Positions 1-34,224 of a DNA stretch of 64,000 bases are shown here, piece by piece. The position numbers and the translations under genes were made by a program. Origin of the DNA: Candidatus Kaiserbacteria bacterium. GTDB lineage: Bacteria > Patescibacteriota > Minisyncoccia > Phycocordibacterales > UBA918. Each line of letters begins with the position of its first letter. Position 1 is the first letter of the stretch. The stretch spans positions 128,747 to 192,746 of the forward strand of contig JAHQWD010000002.1 of the NCBI GenBank assembly GCA_019634005.1, given 5' to 3'. The notes beneath the pieces are model-generated. The model was not told the origin of the DNA and did no database searches. It saw nothing but the letters and a program-made list of their open reading frames with translations.

Positions 1-47
1 TTACAGCAACTATCTTTGACGCTGACGGAACAACGCTTGATGCAAGG

Positions 48-2300
48 ATGGCCGGTGAGCCGTCTGTTGGCACCCGAGACACTCTCGTACTCAAGATCCT
101 TGGAAGTATCATCCTTCTCATTATATTGATTCTTGCCATCTATTTTGTATCCGGACGGAAAGGAAAGAAAGCGGTGGTAACAAGTACGCTCTTCCTCGGT
201 GTACTCTTCGCGGGAGGAATGATCGGCGTTGAATCTGTAGAAGCAAAAACATGGAGTGGAAGTAAAACAGGAACTTCATGTAATTATCGTGTTGAAGGAT
301 CCATCAATAAATCAACATATGATGTTGATGATACGATTCGAGCCACTGGTTCATCTATGGTGTGGTGCACAGGAAATGGTGCGCATGGTGGCGGACTTGT
401 CTCAACAAACATTTCTACGTCTGGAGACTCTGCGACCGCAGCATCTGGGGGACAAACAGTAACCCTTAATGCACCCAACTCAAATGGAAGTTATTCGGTA
501 CGTTTTAGAGACGGTGCATACAATAAAGGAGGAAACCTCAGTTACACTGTAACAGGTGCAACACCACCAGCGCCAACTGCGAACCTCTCTGCATCACCTA
601 CATCTATTACAAAAGGGGACAATACTCGTCTGACGTGGAGTTCAACAAATGCCAATGGGTGTTCCGGAAGTGGTAGCGGATTTAGTACCGGCAATAGAAC
701 CTCTGGGGGAGATAATGCTTCACCAACATCAGATACACGTTACACCGTCACGTGTACTGGAGGGGGTGGTTCAGATAGTGACTCTGTTGATGTAAGTGTC
801 TCAGAACCAACACCAACCGCATCAATCTCTGCTTCTCCTCGAACCGTTGTTCGTGGTGCTCAGACACGACTTACCTGGAGTTCATCAAATGCAGAATACT
901 GTACCGGCGTTCGTTTTGGTACCGGTCGTCGAACGTCTGGATCTACCTACGTGACGGTTAATAGTGATACAGACTATGGAATCCGCTGTTACAACAGTGA
1001 TGGGGATCTGAAGATTGCAGTTGTGAGTGTAAGTGTCACCGATCCTGCACCATCCGTCTCACTCTCTGTCTCACCAAGCAATATTACCGAAGGAGGATCT
1101 GCAACCGTGACCTGGTCTTCAACAAATGCCTCCTCATGTTCCGGAAGTGGTAGCGGATTCTCAACAGGGAACAGAACATCAGGCTCAGATGGAGTCTCCC
1201 CAAGTTCAACAACGACATATTCTATTACCTGTACGGGGCCCGGAGGTAATGATAGTGACACTGCTCGACTGACAGTAAATGCACCAGCGCCGTCAGTGAA
1301 CCTCTCTGCGTCACCAAGCAGTATTACTCGGGGGAATAGTTCGACCCTTACTTGGAGCAGTAGCAACACTTCAACATGTGCAGGAAGTGGTAGTGGCTTC
1401 AGTACCGGTGGAAATACCTCTGGCTCAGACAGCGTTTCTCCAAGTTCAACAACGACATATTCTATTACCTGTACTGGAGAAGGGGGAAGCGACTCTGACA
1501 CACAACAGGTCACGGTAAATGCACAATCACCAAGTGCAAGTATTTCCATTTCACCAAGTAGTATTACCGAAGGAGGATCTGCAACCGTGACCTGGTCTTC
1601 AACAAATGCCTCCTCATGTTCTGGTAACGGGAGCGGATTCTCAACAGGTGGTTCTACCTCAGGAAGCGACTCTGTTTCTCCTTCGAGCACTACAACGTAT
1701 ACGGTCACCTGTACAGGTGCAGGTGGAAGCGACTCTGACAGCGATACATTGACCGTGAACACACCGGCACCAAGCGCTTCTCTTGAGGTTCGGAATGTGA
1801 CACAAGGAGGAGGTTGGACTGGAAGCAATATCATCATTCTCCCAGGTGATCAGGTATATCTACGATGGGATAGTGATGACGCCACAAGTTGTAACGGAAG
1901 CAACTTCAGCACTGGTGGAGACACTGATGGAACACAAACATCAGTTTCAGAACCATCTGCCGGGAATCAAACGGTGTTCTCAGTCTCTTGTAGCGGATCA
2001 GGTGGTTCAGATAGTGACTCACTTCGAGTCACCGCTCAGGCGACCGACCCATCTCTTTCTGCTGACAGCACCAACGTACGGGAAGGGGAAACAATCACAT
2101 TCTCGTATGACATGGAGGGAAATGACCCAAGTCAATGTACACTTACGGGACCGGGCATCTCATATCTTGCTGGTTCATTCTCTAATCAGACAGGAACAGT
2201 GGAAACAACAGTGTCTGGAGACTCTACATTTATCTTGGATTGTGACGGTGGTTCCGCAGAAGTATCCATCGATATCATTCCTATTTCCTTCGATTCCTAA
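48..2300 (+). CDS. Giant cell-surface protein, paralog A. N-terminal 2-TM hairpin followed by about 7 tandem ~90-aa Ig-like repeats (LSASPSSIT..TLTWSS.NA..C.GSGSGFSTG..TSGSD.VSPSSTTTY.ITCTG.GGSDSD) and a conserved C-terminal module ending PISFDS. Likely 5'-partial, because the frame is open to nt 3.
   Basis: 750-aa ORF. Repeat periodicity and paired Cys are visible in the translation. The C-terminal ~200 aa are highly similar to the C-terminus of ORF 6125..9160. There is no in-frame stop upstream back to the window start. Confidence 0.6.
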   Translation: MAGEPSVGTRDTLVLKILGSIILLIILILAIYFVSGRKGKKAVVTSTLFLGVLFAGGMIGVESVEAKTWSGSKTGTSCNYRVEGSINKSTYDVDDTIRATGSSMVWCTGNGAHGGGLVSTNISTSGDSATAASGGQTVTLNAPNSNGSYSVRFRDGAYNKGGNLSYTVTGATPPAPTANLSASPTSITKGDNTRLTWSSTNANGCSGSGSGFSTGNRTSGGDNASPTSDTRYTVTCTGGGGSDSDSVDVSVSEPTPTASISASPRTVVRGAQTRLTWSSSNAEYCTGVRFGTGRRTSGSTYVTVNSDTDYGIRCYNSDGDLKIAVVSVSVTDPAPSVSLSVSPSNITEGGSATVTWSSTNASSCSGSGSGFSTGNRTSGSDGVSPSSTTTYSITCTGPGGNDSDTARLTVNAPAPSVNLSASPSSITRGNSSTLTWSSSNTSTCAGSGSGFSTGGNTSGSDSVSPSSTTTYSITCTGEGGSDSDTQQVTVNAQSPSASISISPSSITEGGSATVTWSSTNASSCSGNGSGFSTGGSTSGSDSVSPSSTTTYTVTCTGAGGSDSDSDTLTVNTPAPSASLEVRNVTQGGGWTGSNIIILPGDQVYLRWDSDDATSCNGSNFSTGGDTDGTQTSVSEPSAGNQTVFSVSCSGSGGSDSDSLRVTAQATDPSLSADSTNVREGETITFSYDMEGNDPSQCTLTGPGISYLAGSFSNQTGTVETTVSGDSTFILDCDGGSAEVSIDIIPISFDS
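1071..1648 (+). repeat. Near-identical ~100-bp direct DNA repeats inside the surface-protein gene (1071-1168 vs 1551-1648). Also a 35-bp exact repeat at 1201-1235 vs 1441-1475.
   Basis: There is a 59-nt exact match at 1082-1140 and 1562-1620 (tattaccgaaggaggatctgcaaccgtgacctggtcttcaacaaatgcctcctcatgtt). Confidence 0.7.
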
Positions 2301-2317
2301 TTCCTCAAAGTGGTCAG

Positions 2318-2346
2318 AAAACAGCGCAAGTATGCGCTTTTTTTGA
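2318..2346 (+). terminator. Rho-independent terminator after surface-protein gene A
   Basis: Hairpin agcgcaagtatgcgct followed by a T7 run. Confidence 0.5.
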
Positions 2347-2367
2347 TGTTAAGAACTCCTCGGAAAC

Positions 2368-2396
2368 TTGATCTATTCGCCATAATATGGTATTAT
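2368..2396 (+). promoter_or_regulatory. Sigma70-like promoter for the RTX gene: TTGATC, 17 nt spacer, TATTAT.
   Basis: Hexamers at 2368-2373 and 2391-2396. An aaaggagg SD precedes the ATG at 2466. Confidence 0.4.
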
Positions 2397-2465
2397 TGCG
2401 ATGGGTTTAGAGTACTTCGACAGCCGCTTGCACGCGGATAATATTGATGTAAAAGAAAGGAGGCA

Positions 2466-4619
2466 GTGATGCCTACGACACTAAGTCAGTTAGATCTGGC
2501 ACCTCTTCCGGTTCCGGGCACCCCGCCGGCTGTCGTAAATGACTCGACAGCGGGCTATCAAAACGTGTTTGCCATTGCGCAAATGCTGGATGAAAACGGA
2601 AACCCCGATGGCACGATTCGTGTCATCTGGTACGATGGCGAACAAGCTAAAAGCCTGCAAAAACTCTACAATGCTGACGGCTCCGTCGCGCAAGAAGAAA
2701 CAGAGTTCCTTGCGGACTCAGTTTCCGGCGTGAGCTGGCCAAACATTGTGGCGTTGAAGGGTGGAAGTTTTATCGTCAACTGGACCGAAACCCTTCCGAA
2801 TATCACTGACGGACAAGGTAATTTCGTTGCCGAGGATCATGATATCCTCGCGCAACGATTTAACCCTGACGGCACCCCTGCATGGGAGCAGGCTGTTACG
2901 GTCAACGATACGACCTACAGCAGTCAGGTATTTTCCCACGGGACGCTTCTGCAGAACGGCACGGTCGTTATTACGGAGCATTCCTATGACGAGAAAACCG
3001 ACAGCAACGAAACAGTCCATGTCTACGGACGTGTGCTGGATCCAGTTACCGGTGAACTTGGTAACGAGTTCCTGTTTGACGAGGGCATCGGTGAGGGCGG
3101 TCGTTTCGTTGAGCCCTATGTCCACCCGCTTGCGGACGGTGGTTTCATCGTCGCAGCAAAAGGGTATGTCTATGACGAAGGCGAGGGTGAGGCACTCTTT
3201 GTGCGCGCTTACAACGCTGACGGCACCTCTCGGGGTGCGGCGGTTGCCATCGACGACGGCACGTCGTTTGATGGCGATTTCTTGCAGTGGGCGACACTGA
3301 AAAGTGGCCTGATTGTTGCTGCATGGCGCAGTGACGACGGCACCACCTTCTCGTACCGCCTACTCCAAGCAGACGGTGTAACTCCGGGAAGTGATGTGAT
3401 CACCTACCCAACCGTTGAATGGGCCGGTGCAGGTCAGCCGAGCGTCTCGGCTCTTGCAGATGGTGGCTTCATCATCAGTCTGCGAGGATTCACCCATCTG
3501 CTGGACACTACGGCAGACGTGTTCGTCCAGCGGTTTGATGCTGTTGGCAATACACTGGGGGACCTCGTGCAGGTCAACGACACTCCCATTGAGGGGAACT
3601 TCGTGTATCCGGTGGCGTTTGCGGACGGTAACTTTGCCATCTTCTACAGCGCTGGTAATGGTGATGTCTTTGGGAACCAAGAGACGGATATATACAACCG
3701 TTTCTTTGTCTCTCCAGACAACCTGATCCAAGGGTCAGACGATGCAGAACTGCATCGTGGTACTCCTGGGAGGGACCAGGTCAATGCTCTCGGCGGTAAC
3801 GATACCGTCTGGGCTGGATCTGGCGACCAGGGTGCTGATACGCTTCATGGCGGCGAAGGGAACGACATCCTCGGCGGCGGTGCTGGCGATGATGTGATCC
3901 AAGGCGGTGCTGGCGATGATGTGCTCTTTGGCGGTGTCGGCGACGATTCCCTCTATGGGGGTGCTGTCAATGCCGGGGGAGTCCTTGCTGGAAACGGCTC
4001 AAACGAGATTTGGGCTGGATCCGGTGATGACTTGATCAACGGCGAAAATGGTAATGATCGTCTTGGTGGCGGTCACGGCAATGACACCATCAATGGCCTC
4101 GGCGGCGATGATCTCATCTACTCCGGTTCTACGGGGAATGAGGTTATCAATGCTGGCAATGGCAACGACGTGGCCTTTGGTGGTACCGGTGATGACATGG
4201 TCAACGGCGGTAATGGTCGTGACGAACTCTATGGCGGGTCTGGTACCGACACCGTCATTGGTGGTTTCGGTCATGACACGCTGTATGGTGGTGCTGGTGA
4301 TGATCTCATCAAAGCTGGTCCAGGAAACGATGTTTTGAACGGAAGCCTGGACGGTGATGACACCCTTGTTGGCGGCGATGGGGACGATACGTTTGTCTTT
4401 AATCTCGCCAATACGGGGGAGGATCGTATCACCGACTTTGATGTCGATGGAGACGCTCTCCGCTTTGTCGGTGAGGGGCTCCAGTCGGTAAGTGATGTGG
4501 TCAATGCTGCGACAGAAGTCGATGGCGGCGTTCTCATCACGACACCGGGCGGTGAGGTTTTCATCGATGGACTCTCACTCACCGACCTTTCCGACACATC
4601 AATGGAGTTTGGTCTTTAG
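2466..4619 (+). CDS. Secreted RTX-type protein. The N-terminal region is beta-propeller-like. The C-terminal half carries many hemolysin-type Ca-binding nonapeptide repeats (GGAGDDVIQGGAGDDVLFGG...).
   Basis: 717-aa ORF. There are more than 15 GG.G.D.. repeats in residues ~440-640. A strong SD is present. Confidence 0.7.
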   Translation: MMPTTLSQLDLAPLPVPGTPPAVVNDSTAGYQNVFAIAQMLDENGNPDGTIRVIWYDGEQAKSLQKLYNADGSVAQEETEFLADSVSGVSWPNIVALKGGSFIVNWTETLPNITDGQGNFVAEDHDILAQRFNPDGTPAWEQAVTVNDTTYSSQVFSHGTLLQNGTVVITEHSYDEKTDSNETVHVYGRVLDPVTGELGNEFLFDEGIGEGGRFVEPYVHPLADGGFIVAAKGYVYDEGEGEALFVRAYNADGTSRGAAVAIDDGTSFDGDFLQWATLKSGLIVAAWRSDDGTTFSYRLLQADGVTPGSDVITYPTVEWAGAGQPSVSALADGGFIISLRGFTHLLDTTADVFVQRFDAVGNTLGDLVQVNDTPIEGNFVYPVAFADGNFAIFYSAGNGDVFGNQETDIYNRFFVSPDNLIQGSDDAELHRGTPGRDQVNALGGNDTVWAGSGDQGADTLHGGEGNDILGGGAGDDVIQGGAGDDVLFGGVGDDSLYGGAVNAGGVLAGNGSNEIWAGSGDDLINGENGNDRLGGGHGNDTINGLGGDDLIYSGSTGNEVINAGNGNDVAFGGTGDDMVNGGNGRDELYGGSGTDTVIGGFGHDTLYGGAGDDLIKAGPGNDVLNGSLDGDDTLVGGDGDDTFVFNLANTGEDRITDFDVDGDALRFVGEGLQSVSDVVNAATEVDGGVLITTPGGEVFIDGLSLTDLSDTSMEFGL

Positions 4620-4636
4620 GGCTTTCTCAAGCCCCC

Positions 4637-4669
4637 TGTCCCCGGCACACTGTGCCGGGGGCTTTTTTT
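4637..4669 (+). terminator. Rho-independent terminator
   Basis: Hairpin ccccggcacactgtgccgggg followed by gcttttttt. Confidence 0.65.
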
Positions 4670-4739
4670 GTGCGGTGGAGATACAAGTACACATCAACCT
4701 CTGTCTTGCTGGTTTTGACAGCATTAGAATATCTTCCTC

Positions 4740-4870
4740 GTGACGGTATCTCCTACAACTACAAGGGCATTGAGCCCGATGTGGACGTGGGGGATACTCG
4801 ACACGACGACAATGAAACGGCAACAGAACGTGACGCCCAATTTATGGTTGCAGTTCGCTCTTTTAAGTAG
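4740..4870 (+). pseudogene. Remnant of an S41-peptidase C-terminus (…NYKGIEPDVDVGDTRHDDNETATERDAQF…).
   Basis: It matches the C-terminal ~35 aa of the downstream S41-like ORF (HKKIKDTREVWGDTTNFERDAQFRFAF) and the S41 GIEPD motif. It is short and lacks a plausible start. Confidence 0.35.
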
Positions 4871-5006
4871 TTCCTTGCTTTGGGTCTGTGCTTCGGCGCA
4901 GACCCATTCCCAGCCCTATAAGCCAGATACTTGATTTTTTATGTAAAGTATGGTACTATGAAATCAGTATTGAGTACCATGAAAACTGCATATTGGAGGA
5001 AAACCA

Positions 5007-5996
5007 ATGTATATCCGAATCAGTGCATGTGCACTACTTATTGCGGCAGCAGCTTTCGCTCCCGCATATGCTGGGTCACTTCCCAGTGAAATGGAGGCGG
5101 TGGTGATGAAAGAAGCAGCCTTCAACATCCGGAAAGGTCGGTGTCTTCAAACATATCGTGACCTAGTTGCTCAGAAGGAAATTGTCACACAGCCCACGAT
5201 GGGTCGGTGTGACGCTGGCTTTCTGGAGTACCTGACCGATGCAGAGTACACGTCTTTGTACGCAACTCCGCTTTTCAATCAGAGCGCTCCCAGCAACGTT
5301 TCGTTCCGACTGATCCATGGCACCACGAACACCGTCGGCTACATCCAAGCAAAAAAGGCTGTCAACAACGCAACAGGTGATGCCATCCTGGACGCTCTTC
5401 GCGTCACCAAAGAACAGACGAACTCCGCCATCATTGACACCAGAAACAACAAAGGCGGCTCCATCGTACCGTTCTTGCAGGTGGTGGTGGGTTTTGCCGA
5501 CTCCAAAGACGACGTTATCTATACGGAAACAAATCCGAAAAAAGACGATGTCGTTTGGACTGCCGGTGAAATCGTAGCACGTGTGGAAGCAGCAGGCTTC
5601 ACAACAGCCGATATCGGCGAGTTTGCCGATATGGAGGTGACGTTCCTTGTGAACGGTGCAAGCGTATCGGCAGCGGAAGATATTCCTGCCGCCGCACGCG
5701 AACTGAGCAACAACGTGTACGTTGTCGGCTCGAAAACCTACGGAAAAGGGTCGCTCCAGAAGCTCTTCGAGCTCTCGGACGGATCCAGAATGCGTGTTAC
5801 CACAGCCTTTGTTCTCTTCGGAGAGGAGCGGCGGAAGTTGAATCACAAGGGTGTGCGGCTTCACAAAAAAATCAAGGACACGCGGGAAGTCTGGGGGGAT
5901 ACAACAAATTTTGAGCGTGATGCTCAGTTCCGATTCGCGTTCCAGCGCTATGCTGGTGAGCCGGTCGAGGCGAACACAATCGTCGCCGCAAACTAA
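5007..5996 (+). CDS. S41-family (C-terminal processing / tail-specific) peptidase-like protein with a signal peptide and no PDZ domain
   Basis: NNKGGSIVPF, GASVSAAEDI and TYGKGSLQKL resemble the S41 catalytic Ser/Lys motifs. An N-terminal signal peptide and a ggagga SD are present. Confidence 0.55.
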   Translation: MYIRISACALLIAAAAFAPAYAGSLPSEMEAVVMKEAAFNIRKGRCLQTYRDLVAQKEIVTQPTMGRCDAGFLEYLTDAEYTSLYATPLFNQSAPSNVSFRLIHGTTNTVGYIQAKKAVNNATGDAILDALRVTKEQTNSAIIDTRNNKGGSIVPFLQVVVGFADSKDDVIYTETNPKKDDVVWTAGEIVARVEAAGFTTADIGEFADMEVTFLVNGASVSAAEDIPAAARELSNNVYVVGSKTYGKGSLQKLFELSDGSRMRVTTAFVLFGEERRKLNHKGVRLHKKIKDTREVWGDTTNFERDAQFRFAFQRYAGEPVEANTIVAAN

Positions 5997-6124
5997 CGTT
6001 GCATTCCTCCATGCGGTTTACTTAAGGCCCAGCGCAATGCGTTGGGCTTTTCTTTTTGCCTGTGGGTAATGAAAAGAGGTTTTTAATATTTTAGTACTAT
6101 ACTTTAAATACTAGTACTAACAGG

Positions 6125-9100
6125 TTGTCAAACCGTATATACTCTATGCACTATACAAAATATATCTTTAGTCTCACCCTCCTTTTCTTTGCTGTTACTT
6201 CAGTGTACGCACAAGAGGAGGAGTTTGAGGGCATACTTATCGCCGATGTGGGAGTACAAAATGCTTCTGTGGTGTATCAAGAGGGGCATACGCTTGATGT
6301 TTTCTTCGAGTTAGTTAACGGTGAAGCAGTGCAGCCAAATATTCGCTATGCAGTGCAGGTCGTAGAAGCGACCGAAGAAGGGGATCGGATATGGGGAGAA
6401 TACACACCAGATGATGTTATCTCGCTCGCATCGAATGAACGCCTCCACAGAAATATTACTTATACAGCGCCTGCATGGCTTGATGGTATCTATGAGGTAA
6501 GGGTTATTGTAGAGAACACCGCAGGACTTCCTTTAGGCTCCGCGTTTCTTGGTGAGGTTATGTTCTCGGGAACGGGGCAGTATGTGGAGATAGACCCAGA
6601 TTCTTGTGATGTCCTCTATGATTACGAGACACCAGTGTCCCTCACCTGTCTTGCAACGAATTATTTTGACACGACACTCGATGTATCACCGCTTTCCGAG
6701 GTGTATCGAAAGACAACACGCGGGGAAGGGGTTGGGATGTTTTGGGATGAAGCAGTGCGCTATACTTTTGGCGCGGGAGAGACGAAAGAAGTAGAATTTG
6801 TGTTTGCACCACAGCCAGGATATGGAACATACGCAGCACATGCACTTCTTGTAGGCGCACAAGGTGCAGACGTTTCAAATAGAGTGCCGTATACATATAG
6901 TACGTATGCATCACCTGCGCAGATAGAGAATATTACCGCAAATGCATCGGGATATGATGAAGATGATGAGGCGGTTATTACTGTTGCGTATGCTGCTGAC
7001 GAGACAGTATTCTTTACACTTGAACTTACCGATGAAGATGGTCGTCTGTGTAGCGAACCAATTACCGATGTTCGGTTGGCATATACAGAGTCTGTGTATA
7101 CAGCGCGCACTATCATTGATCGTTCCTGTGAACATCCGACAGCATCAGTCTTCTTGACCGCAGGTACTGGCGACGTCGTTGACGCGAGTACAATCTATCT
7201 CTCTGGATTACAGGAAGAAACGGGGAGGCTCTCTTTTAGAGATTATATGATCATACTTGCCGTCATTGTTATACTTATTCTTGCATATATGCTCTATCGT
7301 CACACACACAAGGCACGTAATACAGAGACCCTGACCCTCAGTGTTCTGTTTGTAGTGCTTGCATTTGGATTCACTACCCATTTTGCCGAGGCAGGATCTT
7401 GGAGTAGTGGCTCTTCTATCAGTGGGTGTCGAAATAGCCTGCAGGGGAACATTAACAAAAGCACCTATGAACCAGGTGAGGCAATCAGAGTCTCAATGAG
7501 AACATCGGTATCCTGTAATTCGTCCGCGACCGTGAATGGTGTCCCAATTGGTTCTGTAGGAAGTCTTAAGACAAAAATGTATACAAACACGTCTGGATCG
7601 AGTGATTCTCGAACGGGCATCAATGGTAATGGATACGGAGGAAGACTTGCGAATGGTTGTTGTTGGGGAACCACACTCACTGCTCCAGGTAGAGCAGGAA
7701 GTTACAATACAAACTTTAGATCTGTTAACTATACTCAAGAGGGAACAGGGTATTCTTCAGGACGTGGTCCTGCTCCTCGGCGGTATGTAAGTCATGGAAG
7801 TATTCGGGGAAGTGAGAGGTATCGAGTAGTTGCTACGACTCCTCCTGCGCCGACCGCGTCACTTACGGCAAGTCCTTCATCTATAGAGCGGGGAGATGAG
7901 ACAACGTTGCAGTCACGATGTACAAATAGCACGAGTGCTTCGATAAGTCGTGGTGTTGGCTCAGTTTCCTCATCGACTGATAATACCGATGTTTCTCCTA
8001 CACAGAGAACGACCTATACGCTTACCTGTAGTGGTCCTGGAGGAAGTGACAATGACAGCACAACAGTTATTGTGACCGAACCTCCCGTGCCCGCTCCAAC
8101 TGCGTCACTTACGGCGAGTCCTTCATCGATTCAGGAAGGGAATAGCACCCGCCTTATTGCTCGATGTACCAATAGTAATGCGTCATCAATTAACAATGGT
8201 GTGGGAAGCCTCTCTGCGACAGGGGGGAGACCAGTTGTCTCACCTAACTCTCCGACGACGTATAGGCTCACTTGTTTTGGAGAAGAGACCGACGCAGTTG
8301 CGACCACGCGAGTCCGCGTAACTGCGACACCTCCACCTCCACCAGCAGCACCACATGCATCAATCTCTGCTTCCCCACGAAGAATCCAAGAGGGAGAGAG
8401 TACGCGGGTCCACTGGAGTTCTTCAAACGCGGTGGAGTGTCGTAGTACATCAAGTCCACTTACCACAGGAGGTGATACAGAGGGGACTCAGAACATAACC
8501 CTCAACAGAGCACAGACAAAGACCTTCAGTATCGTTTGTGAAAATAGCGCTGGTGACACAGACAGTGCCTCAACACAAGTCACTGTTGAAGAACCGAGCG
8601 AACCAAGTGGCCCAGGATCAAGTCCTTCGCCAACGGCGACACTTGAAGTGCGCAATACTACTGGAGGAGGAGGTTGGACGTCGTCAAATATCACCATTCT
8701 TCCAGGAGACCAGATTGCGTTGCGGTGGGATTCTACCAATGCAAGTGCTTGTAGCGGAAGCAATTTCAACACAGGCAGAGCGGATGACGGAACAACAACG
8801 AGTGTAAACGAACCAACCGGGGGTAATCGTACGACGTATGCGGTGACGTGTACGGGTTCTGGCGGAAGTGACTCCGATTCACTTCGTGTTACCGCACAGG
8901 GTCTCGAGCCAGATCTATCCATTTCAGATGAGGATGTACGTCAGGGGGAATCAGTGACACTTACGTACAATATGCAAGGCAACGATCCTTCTCAGTGTTC
9001 CCTTGTTGGCCCAGGCGTCTCCTACATTGCAGGATCCTTTAGTCAACAGTCAGGATCCATTGCAATCACGATTTCTGGAGACTCGACGTTTACCCTGACC

Positions 9101-9160
9101 TGTCCAGGAGGATTTGCAGAGGCGACCGTAGAACTCATTCCAGTCATCTTTGATTCCTAG
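6125..9160 (+). CDS. Giant cell-surface protein, paralog B. Signal peptide, then a ~370-aa N-terminal domain, then an internal 2-TM hairpin, then Ig-like two-Cys tandem repeats and the conserved C-terminal module (ends PVIFDS).
   Basis: 1011-aa ORF. Residues ~375-1011 parallel ORF 48..2300, including its TM hairpin and the INKSTY segment. The last ~180 aa are about 60% identical. Confidence 0.6.
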   Translation: MSNRIYSMHYTKYIFSLTLLFFAVTSVYAQEEEFEGILIADVGVQNASVVYQEGHTLDVFFELVNGEAVQPNIRYAVQVVEATEEGDRIWGEYTPDDVISLASNERLHRNITYTAPAWLDGIYEVRVIVENTAGLPLGSAFLGEVMFSGTGQYVEIDPDSCDVLYDYETPVSLTCLATNYFDTTLDVSPLSEVYRKTTRGEGVGMFWDEAVRYTFGAGETKEVEFVFAPQPGYGTYAAHALLVGAQGADVSNRVPYTYSTYASPAQIENITANASGYDEDDEAVITVAYAADETVFFTLELTDEDGRLCSEPITDVRLAYTESVYTARTIIDRSCEHPTASVFLTAGTGDVVDASTIYLSGLQEETGRLSFRDYMIILAVIVILILAYMLYRHTHKARNTETLTLSVLFVVLAFGFTTHFAEAGSWSSGSSISGCRNSLQGNINKSTYEPGEAIRVSMRTSVSCNSSATVNGVPIGSVGSLKTKMYTNTSGSSDSRTGINGNGYGGRLANGCCWGTTLTAPGRAGSYNTNFRSVNYTQEGTGYSSGRGPAPRRYVSHGSIRGSERYRVVATTPPAPTASLTASPSSIERGDETTLQSRCTNSTSASISRGVGSVSSSTDNTDVSPTQRTTYTLTCSGPGGSDNDSTTVIVTEPPVPAPTASLTASPSSIQEGNSTRLIARCTNSNASSINNGVGSLSATGGRPVVSPNSPTTYRLTCFGEETDAVATTRVRVTATPPPPPAAPHASISASPRRIQEGESTRVHWSSSNAVECRSTSSPLTTGGDTEGTQNITLNRAQTKTFSIVCENSAGDTDSASTQVTVEEPSEPSGPGSSPSPTATLEVRNTTGGGGWTSSNITILPGDQIALRWDSTNASACSGSNFNTGRADDGTTTSVNEPTGGNRTTYAVTCTGSGGSDSDSLRVTAQGLEPDLSISDEDVRQGESVTLTYNMQGNDPSQCSLVGPGVSYIAGSFSQQSGSIAITISGDSTFTLTCPGGFAEATVELIPVIFDS

Positions 9161-12091: not shown

Positions 12092-13096
12092 CTATAGTGT
12101 ACACCCAAGGGCCTCAGTGAGACTATCGAGGTTTGCGTACATCACTGTAAAATATGTTTCACCATGATCCTGCTCTTCCGCAGTGAGTCCTCCGAGTGGA
12201 TTGAGCACCAATGTCTCTGCACCGATTTCTTGTGCAAGTGTTTCTGCGAGACGAGGGGATACCAGTGTCTCAAAGAATACGTGAGTTACCCCATGCTCTT
12301 CTGCAAATGTACTGATCTCTGCAAGGTCTGCAGCCGATGGTTCCGCTTCTGGCGAGAGACCGCTAATAGGAAGTTGTTCGAGTTCGTATGCTTCTGCTAG
12401 ATACCAGAAGGCGTCATGTGAGGTTACGATAGTCCGTGAGGTACATACAGAGAGTGCATTGCGGTAGTCTGCATCAAGCGTCTGCAGTTTTGCGATAAGT
12501 GCACTGGCATTTTCTCGATAGATAGACTCATGCGCAGGATCAGCCAGTACGAACCCTTTCACAATTTCTTCCACCATGAGCATTGCTTTCTCTGGAGAAA
12601 GCCAGACGTGCGGATCAAGTCCTTCGTGGTGATGTTCTTCCTCCTCATGCTCGTCTTCATGATCGTGATCCTCATGTTCATCATGATCTTCTTCGTGCTC
12701 GTGCATTTCGTCTTCGTGATGTTCCTCCTCCTCAAATTCCCGAGTCATGAAGTCTTCACCTGCAAGTACGATGACAATCTCGTCAGCAGAAAGATTTTCG
12801 AGTACATCATGTTCCCATGGCTCAAAGCCACCGCCGTTAAGAATCAATACATCGCTCTTCTCCATAGTAATGATGTCCCGTGGAGTAGGTTCATATTCAT
12901 GTGGTTCTGCTCCCGCAGGAACAACATTGTGTATATCTGCATATTCGCCACCAATCTCAGAGGCAAAGAAATAGAGGGGATAAAAACTAGTGACCACAGA
13001 AAGTTCGTCGGTATGTTCGGTAGGAGTATCCATATACGACGCTACCCCAAAACCGATAACAAGCACGACAACAAGAAATATAAGTATGTTTTTCAT
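12092..13096 (-). CDS. znuA: Metal ABC transporter substrate-binding protein with a His/Glu/Asp-rich flexible loop (ZnuA-like)
   Basis: 334 aa. The loop HHEDEMHEHEEDHDEHEDHDHEDEHEEEEHHHEG is typical of ZnuA. An N-terminal signal is present. Confidence 0.8.
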   Translation of the reverse strand: MKNILIFLVVVLVIGFGVASYMDTPTEHTDELSVVTSFYPLYFFASEIGGEYADIHNVVPAGAEPHEYEPTPRDIITMEKSDVLILNGGGFEPWEHDVLENLSADEIVIVLAGEDFMTREFEEEEHHEDEMHEHEEDHDEHEDHDHEDEHEEEEHHHEGLDPHVWLSPEKAMLMVEEIVKGFVLADPAHESIYRENASALIAKLQTLDADYRNALSVCTSRTIVTSHDAFWYLAEAYELEQLPISGLSPEAEPSAADLAEISTFAEEHGVTHVFFETLVSPRLAETLAQEIGAETLVLNPLGGLTAEEQDHGETYFTVMYANLDSLTEALGCTL

Positions 13097-13629: not shown

Positions 13630-14217
13630 ATGAAAGGTTTTGGAACAGTGGGGTGGATTATTCTTGTGGCAGTTATCCTTGGAGGAGGATACGCACTTAC
13701 TATGAACTCTAGTGAAGAGAAGATGGAGTCCATGGAGCATGATTCTATGATGGAGGAGGACGCTATGATGTCTGAAGAAGACAGCATGATGATGGAGAAA
13801 GAAGACGCAATGATGGAAGATGGTTCCATGATGATGGCAAAGTACGAAGGAGCGGTGCTTGCGGGAGGAGAGTCACCACTTCTTGATTTTGTGCAGTCAG
13901 ACTATGAGAAAGCACTCGCAAGTGACAAATTGGTGGTGCTGTATTTCTACGCAACATGGTGTCCATTTTGTAGGGAAGAGGCGGGAAATGCACTCGAGCC
14001 AGCATTCAGCGAACTTGAAGGGGATGATGTCATTGGCTTCCGCGTGAACTATAATGATGGAGATACGGATGAGTACGAAAAAGCACTGGCACGAGAGCAT
14101 GGGATTGCATACCAGCACACAAAAGTCTTTATTAAAAATGGTGAGCGTATCCTCAAAGCACCCGATACCTGGGATAAAGAGCGGTATCACACTGAGATAA
14201 CAAACGCACTCAAGTAA
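13630..14217 (+). CDS. Membrane-anchored thioredoxin-like protein (WCPFC) with an N-terminal Met/Glu/Asp-rich low-complexity segment
   Basis: TM helix, (M/E/D)-rich ~45 aa, then a thioredoxin fold motif LVVLYFYATWCPFCREE. Confidence 0.6.
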   Translation: MKGFGTVGWIILVAVILGGGYALTMNSSEEKMESMEHDSMMEEDAMMSEEDSMMMEKEDAMMEDGSMMMAKYEGAVLAGGESPLLDFVQSDYEKALASDKLVVLYFYATWCPFCREEAGNALEPAFSELEGDDVIGFRVNYNDGDTDEYEKALAREHGIAYQHTKVFIKNGERILKAPDTWDKERYHTEITNALK

Positions 14218-14219
14218 CT

Positions 14220-14924
14220 ATGACCACAAGTCTTATCATTGGAGCATTCATCGGCGGGCTGGTTTCCTTCCTTGCCCCCTGCGTGCTCCCACTCATTCCA
14301 GGATTCCTTGCGTACCTTGCGGGGAGCAACACTGACGCAACGGGGAGGGGGCAGCGAGAGATATTCATCAACAGTGTCTTCTTTGTCCTTGGGTTCTCTA
14401 TAGTCTTTGCACTCCTTGGGGTACTTCTCAACACCATCCTTGAGAGTATTGCATACGATGTGCAGATATGGCTGTCTCGTATTGGGGGTGCACTCATTAT
14501 CTTCTTTGGGCTCTACCTCGTGGGACTAATCCGCATTCCATTCCTCGAGCGAGAGCATAAGATGAGCGTTAAGACAAAGTTCTCTTCACGGTATCTTACG
14601 TCACTTCTCTTTGGATTTGCGTTTGCAGCAGGCTGGACACCGTGTGTCGGTCCTGCGCTTGGAGTGATTCTTGGGCTTGCAGCAACGCAGCCAGGAAGTG
14701 CATTTCTCCTTCTCTTCACCTATTCCCTTGGACTCGGTATCCCATTCCTTATTGTTGGTGCGTTTACGGGTAAGGCGACAGCGTTTATTACTCGTCACGC
14801 ACGTGCACTCAAAATCGTGAACATCATATTTGGCGCAATTCTCCTTGCACTCGGTGTCCTCATCTTTACAAACAAACTCGCACTTATTGCGAACTTCGAG
14901 TTCCTTAATAACTTCCTTATCTAA
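14220..14924 (+). CDS. ccdA: Cytochrome c-type biogenesis / thiol-disulfide transporter CcdA (DsbD family)
   Basis: 6-TM protein with the two conserved Cys motifs LAPCVLPLIPGF and GWTPCVGPALG. Confidence 0.75.
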   Translation: MTTSLIIGAFIGGLVSFLAPCVLPLIPGFLAYLAGSNTDATGRGQREIFINSVFFVLGFSIVFALLGVLLNTILESIAYDVQIWLSRIGGALIIFFGLYLVGLIRIPFLEREHKMSVKTKFSSRYLTSLLFGFAFAAGWTPCVGPALGVILGLAATQPGSAFLLLFTYSLGLGIPFLIVGAFTGKATAFITRHARALKIVNIIFGAILLALGVLIFTNKLALIANFEFLNNFLI

Positions 14925-14926
14925 CT

Positions 14927-16006
14927 ATGCGACCGTATATTCTTGTAGCAGTACTGATTCTGATTGGTGGAGCAATCTGGTTTCTTGAAAGCCAGAGTTC
15001 TGACAGAACATCACTCGCGGATGTCGTGTCACTGACACCACGGACGCTCGATTCTGAAGAAAAGGCGAAGATATATCCAACAGCAAAGGAGATCACCTCT
15101 CCTGATGGCTTCATCAATACCGATGAAATCGCTATTGGAGACCTGATTGGAAAGAAGGTTATTCTTGTAGATTTCTGGACGTACAGTTGTATCAACTGTC
15201 AGCGGACATTCCCGTATCTCAATAGTTGGTATGAGAAGTACAAAGATCAAGGACTTGAAATTGTGGGTATTCACACACCAGAGTTTGAGTTTGAAAAGAA
15301 GTACGAGAATGTGCTTGCGGCAACTGAGCGGTTCGACATTAATTTCCCCGTGGTGCTTGATAACGACTTTTCTACCTGGACTGCATACCAGAATCGGTAC
15401 TGGCCTCGGAAGTACCTGATCGACATAGATGGGTACATCGTCTATGACCATATCGGGGAGGGGGCATATGAAGAAACTGAGAAGAAGATTCAGGAATTAT
15501 TGAAGGAGCGCATGGAAGTGCTCGGAGAGGAAGGAGAAATTGTTGGAGATCTCACCGAAGAAGTCACCAAAGCATCTCGTCCAGACAGTCCAGAAATATA
15601 TTTCGGTGCGTGGCGGAATGAGCATTTCGGAAGTGGACCCCAAAATGCAGTTGGGTCTCAGTCTTTCTATGCACCGGAGGAAGTGAAGTTAAATACACTC
15701 TACTTTGATGGTGTCTGGAGTATTACGGAAGAATATTCGGAAAATGTCACTGCTGGTGGGAAGATTATCTTCCGCTTTAAGGCGAGTGAAGTGAACTTCG
15801 TTGCGGGTGCAGAGACTCCTGTGCGTGCGAAGGTGCTCGTTGATGGTGTTCCTGCAAATGGGCGCGACGTAGATGGGGAGGGGTATATCACGGTGGATGA
15901 GGAACAACTCTACAATCTCGTGTCTTCCGAGGAGAAAGAAGAACATACGATAGAAATTATTCCAGAGAGTCCAGGATTACAGGCGTTTACGTTTACCTTT
16001 GGGTAG
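14927..16006 (+). CDS. TlpA/ResA-like thiol-disulfide oxidoreductase, membrane-anchored, with an extra C-terminal domain
   Basis: FWTYSCINCQRTFPYL aligns to the ResA WASWCEPCKKEFPYM motif. An N-terminal TM is present. Confidence 0.6.
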   Translation: MRPYILVAVLILIGGAIWFLESQSSDRTSLADVVSLTPRTLDSEEKAKIYPTAKEITSPDGFINTDEIAIGDLIGKKVILVDFWTYSCINCQRTFPYLNSWYEKYKDQGLEIVGIHTPEFEFEKKYENVLAATERFDINFPVVLDNDFSTWTAYQNRYWPRKYLIDIDGYIVYDHIGEGAYEETEKKIQELLKERMEVLGEEGEIVGDLTEEVTKASRPDSPEIYFGAWRNEHFGSGPQNAVGSQSFYAPEEVKLNTLYFDGVWSITEEYSENVTAGGKIIFRFKASEVNFVAGAETPVRAKVLVDGVPANGRDVDGEGYITVDEEQLYNLVSSEEKEEHTIEIIPESPGLQAFTFTFG

Positions 16007-19270: not shown

Positions 19271-20488
19271 ATGCTAAAGATTTTACAGCCATCATCAGTA
19301 TCGACAGGAGTACAGGGGGTCACTATCGCAACCGCAATCAGGTGGTTTGGGTGGGCGTTTGTTGACCCACTCATTCCCGTATTCCTCTTCATGTTCAGTG
19401 AGTCCTTTTTACAAACAGGGCTTCTGGCATCTATTTACAGCGTAGTCTTTCTCATTTCGGTACCGATTGTGAGTTTCATCTCTGACCACATCAGAGCAAA
19501 GTATGTGATTCTCGCAGGACTTGCTATCTATCCGCTTATCGCCCTCTCATATTATTTTGCAGGTGTATACGGCATGGCTGCATTCATCGCAATTGCACGA
19601 GCACTCAACGGTATCTCCTATGCGCTTGATGCGACTGGACGTGCGACCTACGTACGGCGGCATACAGATAAACAGCAGGTGGGTACCGCGTTTGGGTTCT
19701 TTCAGATTTTTACTGAGGGATGGCGGACGCTTGCGATGCTCTTGAGTATTGTCGTGATTAAGTACGTTGAAATACATGAACTTTTCCTCTTCATCATTCC
19801 AACGACACTCATTGCAATGTTCATTGTGTCCCGTATTGAAGATAGTCCGTGTGATTATCAGCATAAAGCGGATTGGGCGTCCTGTATTCACGGGAGCACC
19901 TACATGCGATTCATTCAGGAGGTGATGATCTGGAAAAACGCACTCAAGAAACTCGCTCTTGTCTCGTTTGTCTTCAATGCACTGACCGCCGCGATTGCAC
20001 TTTTCGTACCAATCTTTCTCTATGCAGATGGTGTGTCGCTTGAACGCATTATCATCTTCTCCATCATCGCGAACATTCCATTCTTGTTTGGGTACCACGC
20101 AGGAAAGATCGCGGATACGTACGGTACGCGCCTGCTCTCCCCGCTGTCATTTGTACTTGCGCTTCTCATGGGAGCGCTTGCATTCGTGCACACATACGAA
20201 TGGTATCTCGTTGTCGTGTTCATCTTTAATATGTGTATTTCTCTCGGACTCATCATCATTGATGCGGAGATGACACGGTGCGGAGACGATCGAAAGTATG
20301 GGGCACTCTCGGGTGCAATCCTTGAGGTTGCAGAGTTGGCATCGGTCATTAGTCCAATTGCGGTCGGTTTTTCTATCACAATGATCGGGCAGGGGAATAC
20401 ACTTTTGGGACTTGGGGTGGTGATGGTCATCGTCGCCCTTCTTGGGGTTAGAGGCCTTACATGCAAACAGCCAACCATTGTTTCTTAG
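19271..20488 (+). CDS. MFS transporter
   Basis: 405 aa with about 12 TM helices. Confidence 0.55.
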   Translation: MLKILQPSSVSTGVQGVTIATAIRWFGWAFVDPLIPVFLFMFSESFLQTGLLASIYSVVFLISVPIVSFISDHIRAKYVILAGLAIYPLIALSYYFAGVYGMAAFIAIARALNGISYALDATGRATYVRRHTDKQQVGTAFGFFQIFTEGWRTLAMLLSIVVIKYVEIHELFLFIIPTTLIAMFIVSRIEDSPCDYQHKADWASCIHGSTYMRFIQEVMIWKNALKKLALVSFVFNALTAAIALFVPIFLYADGVSLERIIIFSIIANIPFLFGYHAGKIADTYGTRLLSPLSFVLALLMGALAFVHTYEWYLVVVFIFNMCISLGLIIIDAEMTRCGDDRKYGALSGAILEVAELASVISPIAVGFSITMIGQGNTLLGLGVVMVIVALLGVRGLTCKQPTIVS

Positions 20489-20514
20489 AAGTCTGCAATG
20501 ATAGAATAAACGCA

Positions 20515-21699
20515 ATGGAAATTGAACGCATTTATGTTGGAGGATGGTTTCAAAGGACAACACTCCATCTCTCAGAACTCTACGATTTTCTCAGTGAGGC
20601 GTCATCACCCCTTGAGCTTGATACAAAGAAATTACAAGCCTTGAATGACACACTCGATATAGCATCGGTGGAAATGAAGGTAGGTAGTCTTCAGTATATT
20701 CTTGTTCAAACATCTGAAGGTATCGTCTACCGTATCTATGAGGATGGCCTCATAGTACTCAGTAGAGACCATGCAGGAGTTGAGAGACTTAAGGAGGATA
20801 TTGCTTCCCTTACACAATATTACGAAGAAAAACTCTCTCCTGCTTTCAGTTACCTTTTCAGTCTTGGAGCACCGGTGCCAAAGGAGTTGGCGAACATCAA
20901 AACAGTCTATCCATATTTTGTTGTGCTTAAGCAAGCAAAACACGAGGATATGCTTGCGCTATTGGAGTCATTTGAACAGGAGAAATATTTTGAGATCAAC
21001 CATAAAAACTACGATATATTTCGGGGGAACAAACTCTATCTTATAAATAATAAAAAAGAATCAATAGAACATATTGGTCGTTTTGTTGAAGAACAGATCT
21101 TTATTCGAGAATTCAAAGGGCAGATGCACCGATATCTCAATCTCCATCGCATTATCTGGGAGCGCATTGAGAACATTAAAGAGCGTGGTGAGGTGCACGG
21201 GAGGGACATTGGCGCACTTCGGAATAAAATTGAAGGATATGCAAAAACCATTAATTTGATTGATGCACGTATCAATCAAATGGGAGCTTACATTGGGACT
21301 CGGGCGTCCATTGTAAAATCAGATAAGGAGTTGGAGAATTTCTTGAGTGTTCTAGAGTATAAGTACGAAACGCTCGATGACACACTTGCGTATGTTAAAG
21401 AAATCTGGGCTATGACCAAGAACTATGTGGTATCAGCAGTTGATCTCTTCTCAGGTCTACAGGCTCAAGCGACCCAGAAATCTGTTGAGAATCTCACTGT
21501 CGTGACTTCTATGGGTGTTGGTGCAACACTTATCGGCCTTTTCACCACTGATCAAGTACCAGATGTAACAATCTTCGGTGTCGGGTATTTCTTTGCACTT
21601 GCGGCAATCGGATATATTGCAAGTAAATCTATCAAATGGTTCTACGCACGAAAGAAATACACTATCTCCTACACAGATTACGATAAGAACATTACGTAA
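20515..21699 (+). CDS. Hypothetical protein: large cytoplasmic helical domain plus C-terminal 2-TM hairpin (CorA-like topology, no GMN motif)
   Basis: The ORF runs 20461..21699. Start chosen at the first ATG not overlapping the upstream MFS gene. Confidence 0.4.
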   Translation: MEIERIYVGGWFQRTTLHLSELYDFLSEASSPLELDTKKLQALNDTLDIASVEMKVGSLQYILVQTSEGIVYRIYEDGLIVLSRDHAGVERLKEDIASLTQYYEEKLSPAFSYLFSLGAPVPKELANIKTVYPYFVVLKQAKHEDMLALLESFEQEKYFEINHKNYDIFRGNKLYLINNKKESIEHIGRFVEEQIFIREFKGQMHRYLNLHRIIWERIENIKERGEVHGRDIGALRNKIEGYAKTINLIDARINQMGAYIGTRASIVKSDKELENFLSVLEYKYETLDDTLAYVKEIWAMTKNYVVSAVDLFSGLQAQATQKSVENLTVVTSMGVGATLIGLFTTDQVPDVTIFGVGYFFALAAIGYIASKSIKWFYARKKYTISYTDYDKNIT

Positions 21700-33315: not shown

Positions 33316-34224
33316 ATGAGGAATACATTCTCTTTCATAGCATTGGTACTCATTATCGCTCTTGGGTACTTTTTTCTTTCTCCTGCACCATGTGGTATTC
33401 CACTTTCATACCGTATTGGAACAATTGATGAAAACTTTGCACTGACAGAGAGTCAGGCTCGTGCAGCGCTCGCTGATGCTGAGGCAGTATGGGAAGAAGG
33501 TGTGGGGAAAGATCTCTTCGTCTATGATTCCGAAGCATTCTTTACCGTGAACTTTGTCTATGATGAGCGACAGGCAGTTACAGACGAAGAACGAGAACTA
33601 CGACATGAATTGGATACCCAGAAAAATCTCAACGACAGTATCAAAGGAGAGTATGATGCGTACGCTGCAGAGTATGAAACTCTCAAGGCAGAATATGAAA
33701 AACGACAACAGAAATACGCACGGGAACTAAAGGCATACAATGAGACCGTTGCAGAATGGAATGAAAAAGGTGGTGCACCAGAGGAAGTGTATGATCAATT
33801 AAATGAAGAACAGGAGCGTCTCACAAGAGAGGGGGAGGCAATAAACAAAATGGTTGATGAGCTCAATGTGCTCGTAGAGAAATTGAATGAGTTGGGAACG
33901 CAAGGAGATTTGCTGGTAGACTCATATAATGAGATTGTTGATGATTACAACGATCGGTTTAATACTGAGCGGGAGTTTACCCAGGGAGACTATCAGGGAG
34001 ATTTCATCAATATTTACGAGTACGAAAGTCCCGAGGAATTACGCATTGTTCTTGCACATGAGTTAGGACATGCACTTTCACTCGATCACGTAGAAGGTTC
34101 GCAATCCATTATGTATTTCTTTATGGGTGAACAGAGTCTCTCAAAAGGACTCACGGTAGAGGATGTAGAAGCCTTTGAGGCAACATGTTCGCCAAAATGG
34201 TATCATAGACAGCGTTACTACTAG
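33316..34224 (+). CDS. Membrane-anchored protein with a coiled-coil region and a C-terminal metzincin-type zinc-protease motif
   Basis: N-terminal TM. Central heptad-rich region. HELGHALSLDH (HExxHxxxxxH spacing) followed by a Met-turn SIMYFF. Confidence 0.5.
   Translation: MRNTFSFIALVLIIALGYFFLSPAPCGIPLSYRIGTIDENFALTESQARAALADAEAVWEEGVGKDLFVYDSEAFFTVNFVYDERQAVTDEERELRHELDTQKNLNDSIKGEYDAYAAEYETLKAEYEKRQQKYARELKAYNETVAEWNEKGGAPEEVYDQLNEEQERLTREGEAINKMVDELNVLVEKLNELGTQGDLLVDSYNEIVDDYNDRFNTEREFTQGDYQGDFINIYEYESPEELRIVLAHELGHALSLDHVEGSQSIMYFFMGEQSLSKGLTVEDVEAFEATCSPKWYHRQRYY

Follow-up and report, generated by a model that had tools for sequence, protein, structure and literature searches.

We examined a 64,000 nucleotide (nt) stretch of DNA, referred to here as the window, which sits on a 215-kb contig of a Candidatus Kaiserbacteria metagenome-assembled genome, a lineage of the Candidate Phyla Radiation (CPR)/Patescibacteria. 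Four open reading frames (ORFs) stand there in a row on the same strand: ORF A, an RTX gene, an S41 peptidase gene and ORF B. All four lie where an initial annotation of the sequence had placed them, and their features are collected in Table 1. The deposited locus tags are KTR10_01010 for the RTX gene and KTR10_01020 for ORF B, and the spacing of the tags suggests that ORF A is KTR10_01005. ORF A and ORF B are members of a very large family, as yet without a name, of cell-surface proteins made of two modules. The explanation of the locus that we favour, and hold with reasonable though not high confidence, is that an ancestral tandem of these two-module proteins carries a foreign RTX–S41 insert.

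The initial annotation described ORF A and ORF B as paralogous, membrane-anchored, extracellular Ig-like repeat proteins, and our analysis bears this out. BLASTP aligned the two proteins with an E value of 3e-113 and 47% identity across the C-terminal 460 amino acids (aa), and a second alignment spanned the transmembrane (TM) hairpin and the domain after it, in which both carry the motif INKSTY(D/E). Hydropathy analysis placed two hydrophobic segments with a basic loop between them in each protein, at residues 28–46 and 58–76 of ORF A (numbering from nt 3) and 373–391 and 403–423 of ORF B. ORF A had also been suspected of being cut off by the window start, rightly so. Its reading frame is open to nt 3, and the 15 residues before its first ATG, TATIFDADGTTLDAR, which are all that the window holds of its N-terminal domain (N-domain), fit I.D..G..LD, the motif with which the N-domain ends throughout the family. 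In addition, the closest full-length relative of the ORF A post-hairpin domain, family member P0126 (1028 aa, 44% identical in that domain), has ~370 residues upstream of the hairpin.

At the nucleotide level, the best-conserved 504 nt of the two genes are 62% identical, with 43.5% identity at third codon positions, and the longest exact word common to both is 17 nt. This divergence excludes a duplication introduced by assembly, an artefact that the initial annotation had allowed for. ORF A and ORF B are old paralogs.

A hidden Markov model (HMM) of the Ig-like repeat found 7 copies in ORF A and 5 in ORF B, each with an independent E value below 1e-25. The repeats had been described as ~90 aa long with two cysteines. 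The cysteines are real, each repeat carrying one pair spaced by 29–36 residues, but the DNA period of 240 nt sets the repeat unit at 80–82 aa. Similarly, the ~180-aa C-terminal module that had been proposed for both proteins is conserved and does end in P(I/V)(S/I)FDS, but it proved to be two extra, diverged repeats and not a separate module, which accounts for the counts of 7 and 5. When the units were excised and aligned, these terminal repeats paired between the paralogs, Ar6 with Br4 at 67% identity and Ar7 with Br5 at 55%. Within ORF A, repeats 3 and 5 (1071–1168 and 1551–1648) are 93% identical over 98 nt, the other copies being 62–67% identical. This suggests a recent two-unit (480-nt) intragenic duplication or gene conversion, and the region is likely to be a hotspot for change in repeat number.

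Neither protein matched any family in Pfam or NCBIfam scans, and the repeats, for which membership of a well-known domain family had seemed conceivable, gave no Pfam hit at E<=0.1. A profile of 42 repeats compared with PDB sequences returned nothing significant (best E 0.13). The PKD families PF00801, PF18911 and PF22352 gave no match to ORF A or ORF B at E<=1, and it was only a distant homolog, P0002, that reached the PKD model PF22352; membership of a Pfam PKD family was rejected in the absence of a PKD profile match. The fold is a beta-sandwich of the PKD/Ig type. Structure prediction, which the initial annotation had proposed, yielded beta-sandwich domains and two helices: the AlphaFold2 model of ORF B (predicted template modelling score, pTM, 0.79; predicted local distance difference test, pLDDT, ~95 over residues 37–358) consists of three consecutive beta-sandwich domains, helices at residues 371–394 and 401–414, and another beta-sandwich. 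Compared with the PKD domain of the Methanosarcina S-layer protein (PDB 1l0q), invasin/intimin and Lap-type adhesins, the two proteins match no PKD, Big or other Pfam model. They also differ from PKD/Ig-like adhesins in that every repeat has its own conserved cysteine pair, and in that the anchor is an internal hairpin and not a beta-barrel, an LPXTG signal or retention by type I secretion.

To place the paralogs in a wider context, 1.84 billion representative sequences were searched by HMMER with ORF B residues 1–570. The search returned 991 cluster representatives at E<=1e-3, of which 753 also passed E<=1e-10, with hits aligning over query residues ~15–470. An N-terminal signal peptide was present in 139 of the 151 members examined, and a TM–loop–TM hairpin stood at the same place in 137. 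In the layout common to the family, a signal peptide and three beta-sandwich domains come first, then a TM helix and a basic loop; a second hydrophobic helix, which ends A-x-A, leads into a conserved beta-sandwich, outer domains that vary and a short acidic/hydrophobic tail at the C terminus. Invariant positions in the family alignment are Q70, Y75 and four cysteines (161, 175, 309 and 335 in ORF B), and ORF B has both the signal peptide and the three-beta-sandwich N-domain with these four cysteines by which the family is defined. An HMM of the domain after the hairpin, with the motif N.NKS.Y.PGE, matched ORF B and 79/149 representatives at E<1e-5. Downstream of this domain the C-terminal parts vary widely, and the repeat of ORF A and ORF B is used by only 35 of the 149. 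No Pfam or NCBIfam model covers the family, and its named members, from Kaiserbacteria, Gracilibacteria, the Parcubacteria group and Paceibacterota, are all CPR 'hypothetical proteins'.

The genomic setting of the family was surveyed with a profile from a 12-sequence alignment in a sample of 80 related loci totalling ~770 kb. There are typically one or two family genes per locus. Some members hold two N-domains in one polypeptide (P0127, and a gene at 2132–6364 of locus L027); in P0127 the order is N-domain, hairpin, second N-domain and C-terminal TM.

The hairpin had been read as a two-TM membrane anchor. The two hydrophobic segments and the basic loop stand, but an internal signal peptide is the better reading of the second helix. 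A TM–loop–helix arrangement with a small-x-small pattern was found in 134–137 of the 151 members, and the end of the second helix follows the signal-peptidase rule, with A or V at −3 and A at −1 in 86/134, and then D-T/S-aromatic. The corresponding junctions are VEA followed by KTW in ORF A and AEA followed by GSW in ORF B. About nine short members (~400–475 aa) end directly after the first TM helix and a basic tail, and in four loci (L029, L049, L062 and L082) the two halves are encoded as separate genes. Gene 2 of these split forms has its own ATG, overlapping the gene 1 stop in three of the four loci, and begins with an MKQ-hydrophobic-AxA signal peptide, after which comes the conserved post-TM domain. 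The counterpart of the second helix of a fused protein is thus a true N-terminal signal peptide in the split forms, and the hairpin is most likely a membrane anchor helix plus an internal signal peptide. By the positive-inside rule, both large parts of the protein are predicted to be extracellular, and fused proteins may be cut by signal peptidase I at the internal A-x-A.

The ATG of gene 2 in the split forms lies inside the A-rich codons of the gene 1 basic tail, for example AAAGAAAATGAAACAA. These sites are at ~1100–1150 in L049, ~940–990 in L062 and ~8180–8230 in L029. Small indels in these codons could toggle the gene between fused and split forms.

The extreme C terminus is conserved independently of what comes before it. 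A tail of the form Phi-x-[DE]-Phi (PQYQEF, PIFIEI, IPVVFDS) or W[KR]EV[AST]P ends 69 of 137 long members, against a background rate of 1.2% at random internal positions, and it occurs regardless of the preceding domains (members among P0126–P0274). The endings IPISFDS in ORF A and IPVIFDS in ORF B are the local form of this family-wide tail. It is possible that the tail is a docking or sorting signal, and we know of no counterpart to it among the C-terminal sorting signals that could be named. LPXTG-type sortase anchoring was considered and rejected, because no hydrophobic segment comes after IPxxFDS in either protein. The repeats that precede the tail number 7 in ORF A, 6 in both P0126 and P0128 and 5 in ORF B. 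The last two repeats are 62–74% identical among these four proteins, compared with 32–37% for the N-domain. Variation in repeat number combined with conservation of the last two repeats suggests a variable-length stalk with a conserved distal two-repeat tip.

Between the paralogs, as the initial annotation recorded, lie genes for an RTX-like protein and an S41-like protease. The RTX protein matches PF00353 in nine stretches (E=1.1e-41, 140.8 bits), with nonapeptide repeats at approximately nt 3800–4390. Its best full-length relatives are from the marine Alphaproteobacteria Kordiimonas lacus and Ruegeria atlantica, at 29–33% identity over 89–97% of the length. Like these relatives it combines nonapeptide repeats with an N-terminal domain and has no N-terminal signal peptide. 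It differs from them in being only distantly identical and in residing in a CPR genome, where no type I secretion genes (ABC transporter, membrane-fusion protein or TolC-type) were found among the window ORFs scanned. The S41 protein matches PF03572 (E=3.1e-22, 79.3 bits against a cut-off of 24), and alignment with PDB 6vbb showed that it retains the catalytic dyad, Ser221 (GASVSAAE) and Lys247 (YGKGS). S41 enzymes are C-terminal processing proteases, in which a PDZ domain usually reads the C-terminal tail of the substrate. The window protein shares the S41 catalytic domain and Ser/Lys dyad with CtpA, CtpB and Prc. Unlike them it is only 329 aa long, shows no PDZ family in a Pfam scan at E<=1 and scores far under every NCBIfam equivalog cut-off. 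Its tblastn matches in plasmids were at most 35% identical and came from mixed phyla.

The initial annotation treated the four genes as one functional cluster, an adhesin or surface-remodelling island. In such an island the S41 protease would process the paralogs, for instance at their C-terminal tails, and the RTX protein would be a co-secreted effector. The four genes do lie side by side on one strand, the paralogs have a conserved tail of the kind that a C-terminal processing protease might act on, and the S41 protein has a signal peptide and an intact dyad. However, no RTX or S41 homolog occurs in the 80 related loci, and tandem family members elsewhere are directly adjacent: five clear pairs lie 60–290 bp apart and four probable further pairs 4–314 bp apart. 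The two genes also look foreign in composition. They have the highest GC content at third codon positions (GC3) in the window (RTX 0.56, S41 0.58, versus 0.35–0.525 for 27 other genes) and fit local codon usage worst, and the boundaries of the segment are visible in the GC profile, which falls to ~0.40 in the flanking intergenic DNA. A terminator-like hairpin follows every gene of the four. The lack of a PDZ domain in the S41 protein, and the lack, among the window ORFs scanned, of type I secretion genes through which the RTX protein could be exported, count further against the island. We consider it very unlikely, and the RTX and S41 proteins are most likely not partners of the paralogs. The compositional oddity, the separate terminators, the relatives of the RTX protein and the close spacing of tandem pairs that lack RTX and S41 genes elsewhere lead us to propose that the two genes are probably a later, 3.8-kb foreign insertion between an ancestral tandem pair. 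It is the RTX protein that marks the insert as proteobacterial in type. No S41 gene was found next to the Kordiimonas RTX relative, and the idea that the two genes travel together as a cassette was left unsupported.

Foreign composition could also arise if alphaproteobacterial reads had been joined into the Kaiserbacteria contig as an assembly chimera. RTX proteins normally depend on a type I secretion system of the Gram-negative kind (PMC3034196). CPR cells are not expected to possess one, so an RTX gene in a CPR genome is a curiosity. An artefact would account for that, and for the foreign GC and codon usage and the proteobacterial relatives. A chimera would, however, require two exact joins, each falling in low-GC intergenic DNA and both of them between same-strand paralogs of one CPR family, and for this reason we judge it less likely than insertion. 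The contig is 215 kb long with deposited annotation spanning it, and there are no repeats at the junctions to mislead an assembler. Typical Rhodobacterales GC3 is well above 0.56–0.58, and the values seen here fit amelioration after a real transfer. We therefore regard a chimera as improbable.

Taking these observations together, we propose the following model for the paralogs. Module 1 would run from a Sec signal peptide through three beta-sandwich domains, which contain two conserved disulfides, to a TM helix and a short basic loop in the cytoplasm, and would serve as an extracellular base anchored in the membrane. Module 2 would open with the second hydrophobic helix ending A-x-A, at which the chain would be re-exported and probably cut by signal peptidase I, and would continue with the conserved beta-sandwich, lineage-variable outer domains and the short tail (IPxxFDS). 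In the Kaiserbacteria proteins the outer domains would be the 7 or 5 disulfide-bonded Ig-like repeats, forming the variable-length stalk and its conserved two-repeat tip. Because the anchored module 1 is placed outside and the second helix would re-export module 2, both modules would face outwards, with module 2 as the displayed part. Module 2 may be kept at the cell by the hairpin or, once cleaved, non-covalently on module 1. The role of the paralogs, as judged from their sequences, is likely to be in a surface coat or in host attachment.

Several points weigh against this explanation of the locus. An uncleaved hairpin, as originally proposed, suits the fused proteins equally well. The restriction of the family to CPR is drawn from four lineage names among 21 members looked up, together with sample types. 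A search around the insert revealed no target-site duplication, inverted repeat or mobile-element remnant, and the gap in GC3 is moderate (0.56–0.58 against up to 0.525). The RTX protein is just 29–33% identical to its best full-length relatives, and neither gene points to a particular donor. To these must be added the slim chance, discussed above, that the RTX–S41 segment is a chimeric assembly.

The two-module design has parallels in known surface layers. Clostridioides difficile SlpA is an S-layer precursor that is cleaved into two subunits which remain associated, and Sulfolobus SlaA/SlaB form an outer canopy on a membrane-anchored stalk. As in these systems, the family combines a conserved cell-proximal anchor part with a variable outer part, made from one precursor or two genes. 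Unlike them, the family is anchored by a TM helix, is divided by a putative internal signal peptide and not by a dedicated protease, and shares no sequence relationship with them.

An alternative is that the family is the S-layer protein of CPR bacteria, with the N-domain or the tip forming the lattice and ORF A and ORF B acting as alternative or co-assembling subunits. The family is very widespread with few genes per locus, and its members are large secreted proteins with a membrane anchor and Ig-like domains. An AlphaFold survey (10.1101/2024.05.28.596244) lists predicted Patescibacteria S-layer proteins of similar size (643–1274 aa), one of them from Kaiserbacteria. These proteins, which include A0A0G1WWP5 (Kaiserbacteria, 1173 aa), A0A1G2EN61 and GMX57981.1, resemble ORF A and ORF B in phylum and size range and were selected for being large and secreted and for having several Ig-like domains and an anchoring segment. 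In a comparison by length and accession, the survey entries gave no exact-length match among the top 150 family hits and no accession match. Cryo-electron microscopy has shown an apparent S-layer on Ca. Nealsonbacteria (10.1101/2022.04.20.488981), and in cultured Patescibacteria the most highly expressed secreted proteins have Ig-like and PKD folds (PMC10936435). We regard the S-layer alternative as a credible lead and tentatively rate it as the less probable account of the locus, beside the ancestral tandem with a foreign insert.

The remaining genes of the window are ordinary CPR housekeeping genes, including those for S20, ZnuABC/Fur, a thioredoxin/CcdA cluster, ribonucleotide reductase, serine hydroxymethyltransferase, tRNA synthetases, RecA, FtsK and six tRNAs. 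The thioredoxin/CcdA cluster (13630–16006, + strand), 4.5 kb downstream of the paralogs, encodes a thioredoxin-like protein, a CcdA/DsbD-type membrane protein and a thioredoxin_8/thioredoxin_10 protein. Such a cluster would suit proteins with as many extracytoplasmic disulfides as the paralogs, and it may supply them with thiol-disulfide chemistry. Another possible secreted protease is a 302-aa protein (33316–34224, + strand) with a matrixin-like (Peptidase_M10) zinc-protease motif region (E=1.2e-8). The isoleucyl-tRNA synthetase (45982–49497, + strand) carries a His_Phos_1 domain at aa 518–680 (Pfam E=1e-34), an unusual fusion in which the insert falls inside the catalytic domain. The ZnuA-like solute-binding protein (12092–13096, − strand) contains a long insert rich in His, Glu and Asp, HHEDEMHEHEEDHDEHEDHDHEDEHEEEEHHHE; its gene adjoins those for ZnuB, ZnuC and a Fur-family regulator. 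Two sizeable ORFs, at 20461–21699 (412 aa) and 50088–51935 (615 aa), both on the + strand, had no Pfam match at E<=1e-3.

Table 1. Features of the ORF A to ORF B locus (positions are those of the window)
Feature	Position (nt)	Strand	Remarks
ORF A, 5'-truncated paralog	3..2300	+	Last 15 aa of N-domain, hairpin, post-TM domain, 7 repeats
ORF A TM1 anchor helix, then basic loop SGRKGKK	84..140	+	Hydropathy
ORF A second hydrophobic helix ending V-E-A, then K-T-W	174..245	+	Putative internal signal peptide, A-x-A-type site
ORF A post-TM conserved domain	246..563	+	Motif INKSTYDVDD, two Cys
ORF A five canonical Ig-like repeats	564..1769	+	~80 aa, 240-nt period, one Cys pair each
ORF A two diverged terminal repeats	1794..2297	+	Tail IPISFDS (2277-2297)
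Terminator-like hairpin and T-run after ORF A	2323..2338	+	
RTX-type calcium-binding repeat protein	2469..4619	+	716 aa from ATG, GGAGG upstream
Strong terminator-like hairpin after RTX gene	4638..4662	+	11 bp, 9 GC, T7
S41-family serine peptidase	5007..5996	+	329 aa, signal peptide, catalytic domain aa 110-284
Terminator-like hairpin after S41 gene	6024..6050	+	12 bp
ORF B, complete family member	6146..9160	+	1004 aa from ATG; mechanical ORF begins TTG 6125
ORF B N-terminal signal peptide	6146..6214	+	MHYTKYIFSLTLLFFAVTSVYA, then Q
ORF B N-domain, family-defining	6233..7198	+	Three beta-sandwich domains (aa 37-148, 154-259, 265-358)
ORF B TM1 anchor helix, then basic loop RHTHKAR	7235..7306	+	aa 371-394
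ORF B second helix ending A-E-A, then G-S-W	7325..7393	+	Putative internal signal peptide
ORF B post-TM beta-sandwich domain	7394..7840	+	Motif INKSTYEPGE
ORF B five Ig-like repeats	7841..9157	+	Three canonical and two diverged terminal; tail IPVIFDS (9137-9157)

The prevailing view is that CPR/Patescibacteria live attached to host cells, but few of the proteins that form their surface and mediate the contact have been identified. It is tempting to speculate that the family is the main surface scaffold of Parcubacteria-type CPR cells, an S-layer or host-attachment coat made from a precursor that is exported twice and cut internally; we consider this broad proposal doubtful at present. In such a scaffold the display module would be held on the anchored base, possibly via the C-terminal tail, and fused and split genes could interconvert through small changes in the A-rich codons of the loop. 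In addition, RTX and S41 genes of proteobacterial type have probably entered a CPR genome at this locus by transfer. Anchored Ig-repeat surface proteins are of a kind already known in general, whereas the two-module design is unusual and the family undescribed. The locus thus points to a family of ~1000 clusters with a well-defined architecture, and a profile of this family could annotate many CPR 'hypothetical proteins'.

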